Virus genome (UHGV): UHGV-0066004
DNA length: 64,000 nucleotides
From: a virus
Strand: one strand, 5' to 3'
Under the pieces are notes generated by a model that searched no databases, was not told the origin of the DNA, and was given only the letters and a program-made list of their open reading frames with translations. Numbering within the stretch: position 1 is the stretch's first letter; each line of letters begins with the position of its first letter. Positions 62,352 through 64,000 of this stretch are shown here, in pieces. The translations under genes were made by a program, and so were the position numbers.

Positions 62352-62450
62352 CATCACTTAAGAGTCTTTTAAAAGGGTTTTTAAGTGAAGTATGGTATGG
62401 CATGGCGCGGTGAGGTCGGGTGCGGTCAGGTCAGGTGAGGTTCGGTGTGG
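62352..62450. repeat. direct repeat copy 1 (at least 99 bp, identical to 63902-64000), contains a GGTNN array
   Basis: catcacttaagagtcttttaaaagggtttttaagtgaagtatggtatggcatggcgcggtgaggtcgggtgcggtcaggtcaggtgaggttcggtgtgg occurs twice. Confidence 0.9.
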
Positions 62451-62531
62451 GTAGTTAGTCTCAACTACATTAAAATGAGACTTACCTTTTTAAAAGGTCT
62501 TTAAAAGGTCTTTAAACAGGGTCTTTTAATG

Positions 62532-62610
62532 AGGTGTGGTAAGGTAAGGTTAGGCGAGGTTGGGTGCGGCAAGATTTGGTCAGGTTTGGTATGGTGAGGG
62601 TGGATGGTAG
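62532..62610. repeat. GGTNN pentanucleotide array (about 14 units) plus GGTAG...CTACC hairpin
   Basis: GGTAA GGTAA GGTTA GGCGA GGTTG GGTGC ... GGTGA. Confidence 0.75.
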
Positions 62611-62692
62611 TAGCCACGTTAAAAATCTACCAAGTTTCTAAAGAGTCTTCTGTTGAGGGTTCTTTACAAACAACTTAACAATCAACTAAAGT

Positions 62693-63295
62693 GTGGAGCT
62701 AAATGCTATGAAACTGTTAAATGTCAAAATCACTGGTACTCGTCCTTTCTTGAGCCATAACGATACGCTGTCAGACCCATTAAACCCTCTGACAAAATAT
62801 CACAAGTCTCTGTCCAGTAAACGTAAAAAGACTGACGAAGACTATGCGCTCTTAGCAGAAAGTCAACTGGTAACTTCTTGTTACTACGATGAGCAACTTG
62901 GTTTTGTTATGAACGGTGAGATGATTGAGGCTTGTATCAAGTCTGGTGCAAAACTCAACAAACTTGGTAAGGTAATTGACCGAGCCATTATGCTGACAGA
63001 TGTAGTCTTCCCAATGACTATCAAGAACTGTCCAGCAAACCCACAAGAACTCGCTAAGAATCCAGACTTTATCTATGCTAAGTCTGTTAAGATTGGTACA
63101 GCACGAGTTATGAGCTACCGTCCAATCTTCCGTGACTGGTCTGTAGAGTTTGGTTTGATGTTCGATGAAGAGCAAATCACCCGAGAGGAACTTCTGATGG
63201 TTCTGGAAAATGCTGGTAACCTTTGTGGTGTAGGTGATTGGCGTCCACGCTTTGGTCGTTTTTCTGTAGAAGTTATTTCAGAAGGTAACGTTTAA
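62693..63295 (+). CDS. hypothetical protein
   Basis: 200-aa ORF inside the direct-repeat-flanked cassette. Confidence 0.5.
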
Positions 63296-63297
63296 TT

Positions 63298-63738
63298 ATG
63301 AATACAAAAGCATTAGCAGCAAAGTTCAGTTACGGTGACACTGTATCACATTCTGAGATGGACACCTTCTTAGGTATTGTGAAGCCAACTTATCAAGGTG
63401 ACATTGTTAAGTACGAAGATGAAATGAAGGCTTACGCACTGACACGTTTAAATCGACTTGAGAAGTTTATTGAGAAGCTTCTTAAAGAAGAGAAGATTTA
63501 TCTGGTTGCTTCAATGGGTGTTGGTTATCGTGTGGTTGAACCTAAGCATCAAGCAACTATTGCAAAACGAAAAATGTCTGGTAAAATTGGTCGTGCTTTA
63601 AAGCAAGCCACTCAAGCGATTGAGAATGTGAACACTATGGCACTTAGCCATCAAGAACGCTCACGACTAATTGAACAGCAAAACCATTTAGCTGCTATGA
63701 AAGCTAACATTAACAAGCAACGTAGAAAACCTTTCTAA
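63298..63738 (+). CDS. hypothetical protein
   Basis: 146-aa ORF, 2 nt after previous stop. Confidence 0.5.
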   Translation: MNTKALAAKFSYGDTVSHSEMDTFLGIVKPTYQGDIVKYEDEMKAYALTRLNRLEKFIEKLLKEEKIYLVASMGVGYRVVEPKHQATIAKRKMSGKIGRALKQATQAIENVNTMALSHQERSRLIEQQNHLAAMKANINKQRRKPF

Positions 63739-63748
63739 GTTAACTAGG

Positions 63749-63773
63749 TAGCCTCTTCGGAGGCTCCTTTTTA
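63749..63773 (+). terminator. intrinsic terminator with UUCG tetraloop
   Basis: AGCCTC-TTCG-GAGGCT followed by CCTTTTT. Confidence 0.7.
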
Positions 63774-63810
63774 AAAGGTCTTTAAGAGGGTCTTTTAACA
63801 AGGTGCTGCG

Positions 63811-63872
63811 AGGTGGGGTCGGGTCAGGTACGGTCTTGTAAGGTCAGGTTAGGTAAAGTGAGGTATGGGTAG
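63811..63872. repeat. GGTNN pentanucleotide array (about 11 units)
   Basis: GGTGG GGTCG GGTCA GGTAC GGTCT ... GGTAT GGGTAG then GTAG...CTAC hairpin. Confidence 0.75.
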
Positions 63873-63901
63873 TTAATCGGAGCTACATAAAAATTCGATT
63901 A

Positions 63902-64000
63902 CATCACTTAAGAGTCTTTTAAAAGGGTTTTTAAGTGAAGTATGGTATGGCATGGCGCGGTGAGGTCGGGTGCGGTCAGGTCAGGTGAGGTTCGGTGTGG
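63902..64000. repeat. direct repeat copy 2 (identical to 62352-62450), truncated by window end
   Basis: Exact match over all 99 bp available. Confidence 0.9.

Follow-up and report, generated by a model that had tools for sequence, protein, structure and literature searches.

The 64,000-nt window analysed here, a stretch of the virus genome UHGV-0066004, belongs to a Felix O1-like phage (Ounavirinae) and carries at its 3′ end a candidate type II Viral Interference Programmable Repeat (VIPR) locus. Four tracts on the + strand (62389-62448, 62533-62597, 63802-63866 and 63939-64000+) show GG plus a pyrimidine (Y) every 5 nt, and two small genes, vipr and vap1, lie between the second tract and the third. 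In total 229 phage records match the region, almost all of them Felixounavirus or other Ounavirinae of Escherichia, Salmonella, Shigella and Citrobacter. The gene order is conserved, running from the DNA ligase gene through a promoter, arrays, the two small genes, a terminator and further arrays to the next operon; between phages the coding parts are 91-96% identical, the array region only ~80%.

VIPR was described as a phage-encoded, CRISPR-like system for RNA-guided DNA silencing in two 2026 preprints (10.64898/2026.04.26.720920, 10.64898/2026.04.26.720927), the accessible text of which is the source of the following account. It consists of Vipr, which is a small protein of the RAMP family, of the accessory protein Vap and of ~100-nt guide RNAs (vrRNAs), each made of 9-16 YNNGG repeats and an invariable 3′ tail that is a pseudoknot in the SUSP1 clade. 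Vipr polymerises on the vrRNA with one protomer per repeat, sequestering GGY and presenting NN; the NN bases pair with double-stranded DNA whose dinucleotides are one skipped base apart, an R-loop triplex is formed and the matched DNA is transcriptionally repressed. For phage SUSP1 the evidence comprises small-RNA sequencing, pull-down, GFP and phage assays and cryo-EM, with the 1-nt skip rule shown and reprogramming of NN changing target specificity. Guides of the SUSP1 clade are aimed mostly at a satellite element in E. coli genomes, and VIPR has been proposed as the ancestor of CRISPR RAMP proteins (10.64898/2026.04.26.720920, 10.64898/2026.04.26.720927).

The first of the two genes (vipr, 62708-63295, + strand) encodes a 195-aa RAMP-family protein that aligns over its full length with PDB entry 36pp, 'SUSP1 Vipr protein' (E = 2e-127, 189/195 identical). 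Thirteen of the 14 RNA- or DNA-contact residues named in the available text of the structure preprint are kept (H17, K33, R39, E71, M72, K82, G87, K88, R138, C173, D177, W178, R179), and the fourteenth, 'T175', is not a real difference since SUSP1's own sequence also has V there. The second gene (vap1, 63298-63738, + strand, 146 aa) is identical at 145/146 positions to the SUSP1 gene directly downstream of vipr, which is named vap1 and stated to enhance protection in the portions of the preprints available (bioRxiv 10.64898/2026.04.26.720920, 10.64898/2026.04.26.720927). Neither protein has a match in Pfam or PADLOC, their PHROGs matches are to families of unknown function only, and a PDB sequence search gave no match for Vap1. 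An initial annotation of this stretch had recognised both genes and called their function unknown, which no longer holds; the first starts at ATG 62708 and not, as then placed, at GTG 62693. Because the flanked genes are vipr and vap1, we assign the locus to the type II VIPR systems of the SUSP1 clade. The likeness to SUSP1 covers the proteins (97% identity for Vipr, 99% for Vap1), the promoter, the GGY/NN code, the two pseudoknot tail types, the position between the DNA ligase gene and the dhfr/td genes, and the satellite family targeted. SUSP1 differs in having one upstream vrRNA against two here and a different set of guides, and here one guide occurs twice (A and D).

All features of the locus lie on the + strand. 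A sigma-70-type promoter, TTGACA-16-TATACT (62294-62321, 11/12 consensus matches), stands upstream of the first vrRNA and is identical in sequence in phages heid, ekra and SUSP1; both it and the terminator after vap1 have the expected orientation. Putative vrRNA A follows, with leader L1 (62352-62388), which contains a 16-bp imperfect hairpin abutting the repeat tract and lies within the first copy of a direct repeat, 12 YNNGG units (62389-62448; NN series AT AT AT GC GA CG GC CA CA GA TC GT) and a 3′ tail of pseudoknot type A1 (62449-62486), where GTAG/CTAC is interleaved with AGTCTCA/TGAGACT ahead of a T-run. vrRNA B has a leader of the L2 type (62487-62532) containing TTAAAAGGTCTTTAA motifs, 14 units (62533-62597; NN series GA GT AA AA TA GA TG GC AA TT CA TT AT GA) and a type B1 pseudoknot tail (62598-62631; GTGG/CCAC interleaved with GGTAG/CTACC). 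In the YNNGG frame its tract spans 62530-62599, with Y and the first NN taken from the leader end (62530-62532) and the last GG from the tail start (62598-62599).

Beyond vap1, an intrinsic terminator (63750-63772; AGCCTC-TTCG-GAGGCT then a T-run) precedes vrRNA C, which comprises leader L2 (63766-63801), 14 units (63802-63866; NN series AA GC GA GG CG CA AC CT AA CA TA AA GA AT) and a type A2 pseudoknot tail (63867-63904; GTAG/CTAC interleaved with AATCGGA/TTCGATT); its YNNGG-frame tract, 63799-63868, likewise takes Y and the first NN from the leader end (63799-63801) and the last GG from the tail start (63867-63868). vrRNA D begins with leader L1 (63902-63938), inside the second copy of the direct repeat, and its variable region (63939-64000) equals that of A and is cut by the window end at 12 units. 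The homologous locus of phage ekra suggests that position 64000 is followed by the tail of vrRNA D and then by a fifth vrRNA.

The unit counts of A to D (12, 14, 14 and 12, the last cut) fall within the range of 9-16 given in the preprint text available. Runs of at least eight consecutive GGY-NN units number three in the window, against none in 100 shuffles, and a register-aware scan of both strands found no further GGY-NN array in the 64 kb. The four + strand pentamer arrays reported initially are thus real and have no counterpart elsewhere in the window, with two boundaries to be corrected: array B had been drawn to 62610, which reaches into the tail (repeats stop at 62597), and array C from 63811, which misses two degenerate units (repeats begin at 63802). 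Tandem Repeats Finder detects the arrays weakly because the other two positions of each pentamer vary. Initially this 5-bp periodicity could not be placed in any known element class; since the descriptions of April-June 2026 it can, as it defines VIPR systems.

Conservation of the arrays, tails and leaders

Conservation was assessed on 57 arrays (43 unique, 549 units) from the window and 16 related loci, SUSP1 included. Among the 549 units of the unique arrays, the pentamer positions are conserved at 79% (G1), 98% (G2) and 100% (Y3, of which T 91%), figures that are somewhat inflated by the gathering of units on at least 2/3 GGY positions. The information content is 1.05, 1.86 and 1.57 bits for G1, G2 and Y3, and 0.09 and 0.11 bits for N4 and N5. 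Pairs of phages compared in the orthologous slot immediately before vipr have an identity of 0.85 at GGY and 0.36 at NN. Across the 43 unique arrays from 17 loci GGY is thus kept while NN is hypervariable, and in every related genome the arrays lie on the same strand as vipr.

The tails are of two types. In type A, GTAG/CTAC is interleaved with AGTCTCA/TGAGACT or its variant AATCGGA/TYCGATT; in type B, GTGG/CCAC or AAGG/CCTT is interleaved with GGTAG/CTACC or GGCAG/CTGCC. The pseudoknot helices are paired in 99% of cells for type A and 100% for type B, against 24-48% in slid controls, and compensatory changes are found for three pairs in type A tails and three in type B (B1 relative to B2). 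The GTAG-loop-CTAC hairpin noticed initially is real but represents only one helix of a pseudoknot. No covariance model of Rfam 15, which contains no vrRNA family, matched 62250-64000 at its gathering score or at a permissive threshold, two matches there being at chance level (E about 0.1).

Two leader types precede the arrays. The AAAGGTCTTTAA motif previously placed before all arrays is present at B and C (leader L2), whereas A and D have a related leader, CATCACTTAAGAGTCTTTTAAAAGGGTTTTTAAGTGA (L1). The latter (CATCACTTAAGAG...TTAAGTGA) forms a 16-bp hairpin (-14.1 kcal/mol, z = -4.3) immediately before the first repeat that is kept in nine variants, its apical pair alternating between C-G and U-A. 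This hairpin may set the 5′ ends of vrRNAs or the limit of the Vipr filament; we found no description of it, nor of vrRNA biogenesis for this VIPR type, in the accessible text of the preprints (10.64898/2026.04.26.720920, 10.64898/2026.04.26.720927). L1 may be a processing site, because it follows a tail that lacks a T-run, and L2 may contain a promoter, because vrRNA C starts right after a terminator, or may act as a processing element. As a sigma-70 promoter, L2 is a poor match: TTTAAT, its -10-like element, is without the important A in second place, and L2 is not called in the promoter scan. Motifs resembling TTAAAAGGTCTTTAA occur 38 times in intergenic regions across the phage against 5.9 expected, for example at 10547-10561, 20798-20812 and 56331-56377, some being perfect palindromes such as TTAAAAGGCTTTTAA; since they are enriched phage-wide in intergenic DNA, they are not VIPR-specific.

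In IMG/VR at least 120 stretches match six GGTNN units in a row exactly, against roughly 3 expected by chance on a rough estimate of the collection size. Many of these belong to unrelated viral contigs and form long degenerate arrays that reach 48 units, and the first open reading frame (ORF) 3′ of the arrays falls repeatedly in one protein cluster with the 200-aa ORF of the window. Vipr homologues adjoin the arrays in 11 of 15 non-Felix contigs tested by tblastn. Arrays and Vipr protein thus travel together, as homologues recur beside arrays in unrelated contigs. Much larger arrays were seen in some of the latter: 48 units in one tract in L015 (532-771), seven arrays of 13-33 units in L035 (4870-7398), arrays set apart by a conserved CTCTGGCGAGAAATTTTTATGC spacer in L122 (1078-1744), and back-to-back arrays bounded by GGCAG in L118 and L121. 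These probably represent other VIPR types. Simple pentamer microsatellites also match (GGTNN)x6, among them (GGTCG)n, (GGTTG)n, (GGTCA)n, (GGTTC)n and (GGTTA GGTTA GGTAA)n, and were rejected as vrRNAs; L005, L008, L010, L014, L022 and many others are false positives of this kind for vrRNA searches.

Several other features of the window and its relatives were recorded. A 48-aa, strongly hydrophobic ORF (62140-62286, + strand), hypothetical in Alf5, lies between the DNA ligase gene and the VIPR promoter. Dense intergenic families of 10-12-nt tandem repeats occur at 10531-10680, 18647-19980 and 56334-56383 (for example CTTAACAGACT, x6.8, and TTGTTAAGAAA, x4.7 at 97% identity) and may serve in regulation or as origins. 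As is typical of Felix O1-like phages, 26 tRNA genes are clustered at 3343-8489 (- strand). GenBank record GU169904 ('Staphylococcus phage SA1') contains an 84% match to Felix-like VIPR DNA at 90936-91079, and its host label or composition looks doubtful.

Guide matches in E. coli satellites

Satellites were located through the SUSP1 baseplate gene, which was found in 474 of 5426 complete E. coli genomes. Six annotated satellite loci (L127-L131 and L135), ~10-11 kb elements on E. coli chromosomes, were scored for matches at the NN positions with 0-3 skipped bases. L127 is inserted in a split DUF72-family gene beside yecD; others lie between yciI and tonB or directly beside wrbA. Their cargo includes a large serine recombinase, tape-measure and baseplate genes, an HNH endonuclease and often a Dam-type methylase.

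Guide B matches 24/28 NN positions at best, with 22-24/28 in four satellites and 20/28 in a fifth, and its best site is the same in all five: it lies 17 nt before the tape-measure start codon, in the stretch of the ribosome-binding site and that codon. Guide C reaches 24/28 in frame in the large serine recombinase gene of a satellite. For both guides the other skip lengths score 17-20, and 24 was reached in none of 500 shuffles. Idealised BLAST queries gave tape-measure-annotated sequence in 337 of 5426 complete E. coli genomes for guide B and recombinase-annotated sequence in 112 of 5426, at 80-99% identity, for guide C; among the matches listed, the hits fall within annotated tape-measure and recombinase genes.

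The guide shared by arrays A and D scored 17/24 in the first five satellites, which is the null level and indicates no target there, and neither an idealised BLAST query nor the exact 11-unit pattern in IMG/VR gave a match. The exact 9-unit pattern in IMG/VR, however, led to a satellite fragment and from it to a satellite variant directly beside wrbA. Here the guide matches 23/24 NN positions, in frame, in the recombinase gene, against 16/24 for other skip lengths and a null maximum of 20 in 1000 shuffles. A second match, in the unrelated metagenome contig L133 (19/24), was taken as chance. The recombinase variant concerned is found in 74 E. coli genomes. In the recombinase targets of guides C and A/D, both in frame, the skipped base is the wobble position, and because the two guides match different recombinase variants, the guide set covers different satellite lineages.

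The predicted 1-nt-skip target sites lie at L129 6427-6467, L127 15610-15650 and L135 12412-12446, and the predicted target sequences of the three distinct guides are GAGGTGAAATATGAACAATGAGCAAATTTACAGTTGATAGT, AATGCTGAAGGTCACCAGACGCTTAACCAGTACAAAGCAGG and ATCATCATAGCTGAGCGAGCACACCAAGAATCTCT. No equal guide score was obtained in 1.3 Mb of unrelated loci, and within the window no self-target was found, the best scores (16/24, 18/28 and 19/28) being background. The guide in the fifth slot of ekra, a slot expected just past the window end here, scores up to 22/24 in satellites.

One satellite, that of E. coli GN25, carries its own 13-unit vrRNA (L130 2127-2191, - strand) with a B-like tail showing compensatory changes (TGTCG/CGAC). 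As no vipr or vap homologue was found in any of seven satellite loci, this satellite would have to borrow the Vipr of its helper phage. Satellite-encoded vrRNAs are mentioned in the preprint text available (10.64898/2026.04.26.720920, 10.64898/2026.04.26.720927).

The direct repeat and exchange of guide modules

The direct repeat reported initially is perfect over 99 nt (62352-62450 = 63902-64000) and runs into the window end. It consists of the 37-nt leader and the entire repeat tract of one guide. Among the 17 loci compared, an internal duplicate guide occurs in this genome only. In ekra, array C is identical to that of the window, array D differs by one base, and slot A holds another guide; the A/D guide is present once, in slot D, in ekra, SME50, HMD-P10 and SPJ41. 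Since relatives carry this guide in D only, the repeat is best read as one leader-plus-guide module copied into slot A, most likely by recombination through the conserved L1 leader and A1 tail.

An alternative is that the arrays are real and the duplication is not, guide D having been misplaced in slot A by the assembly. Leader L1 and tail A1 are near-identical between slots, which would favour such an error, and no other phage record has this guide twice. However, the flanks of each copy are unique and colinear with relatives, the assembler would have to lose the true slot-A guide entirely, and tail A of the window has its own variant (CAACTAC), not that found after D in ekra. We therefore consider an artefact unlikely.

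It is also very unlikely that the repeat serves excision, inversion or duplication of a mobile or phase-variable vipr-vap cassette; excision or duplication had been one of the options in the initial annotation. Perfect repeats 1.5 kb apart do bracket vrRNA B, vipr, vap1 and vrRNA C, and RecA-type recombination between them would delete that segment. Against this, the 16 related loci share the gene order and layout without any internal duplicate guide, the guide in question stands in slot D only in ekra, SME50, HMD-P10 and SPJ41, and no recombinase or att-like feature was found at the locus. Moreover, the repeat comprises exactly one leader-plus-guide module, which is what gene conversion among conserved modules would produce. 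Loss of vrRNA B, vipr, vap1 and vrRNA C could be a side effect of the repeats, with nothing to suggest that it is their function.

Module copying of this kind may not be confined to a single guide. Eight leader/tail combinations occur across genomes (L1/A1, L2/B1, L2/B2, L2/A2, L2/A1, L1/B2, L1/B1 and L1/A2), identical guides are common to otherwise divergent phages (guide B of the window is that of Salmonella phage DaR-2019a), and some guides appear to be chimeric. The window, heid and DaR-2019a have two upstream vrRNAs with distinct leader/tail pairs, and ekra aligns across both upstream arrays. In SUSP1 the single upstream vrRNA (L123 29150-29270) has leader L1 in front and tail B1 behind, the arrangement that a deletion between arrays A and B of a five-slot phage would leave. 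Because leader and tail types combine freely and divergent phages share guides, whole vrRNA cassettes might move between slots and phages by homologous recombination through the leader hairpin and tail, a tentative reading that we regard as possible and rather doubtful.

Identity and biological meaning of the locus

Taken together, these data identify the region, with a probability of about 0.93, as a type II VIPR locus of a Felix O1-like phage in which the arrays with their tails are vrRNA genes. Each array and its 3′ pseudoknot tail would encode a ~100-nt vrRNA. Vipr (62708-63295) would polymerise along it, one protomer per pentamer, burying GGY and exposing the two variable bases, so that the 12-14 NN dinucleotides could pair jointly with double-stranded DNA carrying the same dinucleotides one skipped base apart. 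The resulting R-loop triplex would block transcription, with Vap1 (63298-63738) predicted to enhance repression. The three distinct guides would be aimed at E. coli satellites with Felix-like tape-measure and baseplate genes, at the start of the tape-measure gene and in large serine recombinase genes, and the direct repeat would be the same guide held in two of five slots. As all three distinct guides match satellite elements, the locus most likely silences satellites that parasitise the phage; we infer that this phage expresses active RNAs and is parasitised by the satellites.

Several points weigh against this identification. For this phage VIPR function is predicted from sequence, expression, binding and repression having been shown in SUSP1, and the mechanism itself rests on two preprints before peer review, with the structure deposited in PDB. 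The best natural matches cover 82-96% of NN positions and thus fall short of perfect, and the mismatch-tolerant scan took in the six annotated E. coli satellite loci and one IMG/VR fragment only. vrRNA C lies directly after a strong terminator, so its transcription would need either read-through or a separate promoter. The window ends before the tail of vrRNA D and the predicted fifth vrRNA.

An iteron array, one of the options raised initially, would make the repeats double-stranded sites for a phage DNA-binding or replication protein, or a replication origin. Like iterons or centromere-like arrays, these are tandem short repeats in non-coding DNA that flank two small genes, and the AT-rich palindromic motifs beside them recur in other intergenic regions. 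Iterons, however, are 17-22-bp duplex sites conserved over their full length, whereas here the unit is 5 nt, strand-specific in every related genome and presumably transcribed; three of five positions are conserved and the other two (40%) are hypervariable, the reverse of the iteron pattern. Neither neighbour is a rep or par gene; one is the RNA-binding Vipr, whose SUSP1 counterpart was solved with this RNA (PDB 36pp) and, according to the accessible preprint text, binds the repeats as RNA. The same text reports array transcripts in SUSP1 small-RNA sequencing. Lastly, applying one specific gapped rule reveals matches of the NN bases to foreign DNA. An iteron function is therefore extremely improbable, and of the options put forward at the outset a structured RNA came nearest, the arrays being very probably genes for ~100-nt guide RNAs, each with a structured 3′ pseudoknot tail.

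In the trp leader of Bacillus, 11 (G/U)AG triplets spaced 2-3 nt apart are wrapped round the 11-mer ring of TRAP. That the arrays are such TRAP-like or sponge RNAs, their triplets held by the subunits of an oligomer to regulate downstream genes with no guide role, has a negligible probability: the ~5-nt period, the conserved triplet held by one subunit each, the 11-14 units and the position of many arrays in 5′ regions of genes resemble the TRAP site, but TRAP is a closed ring of unrelated fold that regulates its own operon through RNA whose spacers carry no information and pair with no target, whereas the hypervariable NN bases here match foreign genes only under a 1-nt skip, which would be unexpected for a sponge, arrays also lie downstream of the operon after a terminator, and the bound protein and the change of specificity on NN reprogramming are given for SUSP1, in the preprint text available, as a RAMP filament and as an established result. 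TRAP-like ring-protein RNA and two-tetrad G-quadruplex arrays were both dropped after the neighbouring gene matched SUSP1 Vipr in PDB.

Among known systems, Class 1 CRISPR-Cas (e.g. Cascade) is similar in that a RAMP protein oligomerises on a guide RNA, a thumb flips bases at a fixed period, DNA is recognised through RNA and a conserved structured handle caps the variable part, as far as the preprint text available sets this out. The phage-encoded VIPR locus differs in lacking a repeat-spacer array, cas1/cas2 and a nuclease gene: a test for CRISPR-Cas found no identical 23-47-bp repeats with spacers, only 5-nt arrays, and the two genes are unrelated to cas1/cas2. The VIPR guide is also non-contiguous, using 2 of every 5 nt with a 1-nt skip in the target, and VIPR represses without cleavage and with no protospacer-adjacent motif reported in the accessible text.

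The locus counts as already known, because the VIPR class, its mechanism and its natural targets have been published as 2026 preprints. The new part is modest and consists of a guide held in duplicate, an architecture of five slots, hairpins in the leaders and specific target predictions. Guide duplication between slots, free recombination of leaders and tails and the leader hairpin were not found in the portions of the preprints available.

VIPR is a recently described mode of RNA-guided DNA recognition, with a non-contiguous 2-of-5 code and an R-loop triplex. The window adds no new class to it and provides an independent, sequence-only confirmation of the published rules on another phage, together with concrete target predictions, namely the tape-measure gene start and two kinds of recombinase gene in the satellites. 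Unaided reading of raw sequence, as this case shows, can pick out vrRNA genes. If the exchange of vrRNA cassettes is selected, and not incidental, it would be an undescribed route for the renewal, reshuffling or dosage change of VIPR guides; such exchange would, if true, be a recombination-based counterpart of CRISPR adaptation.

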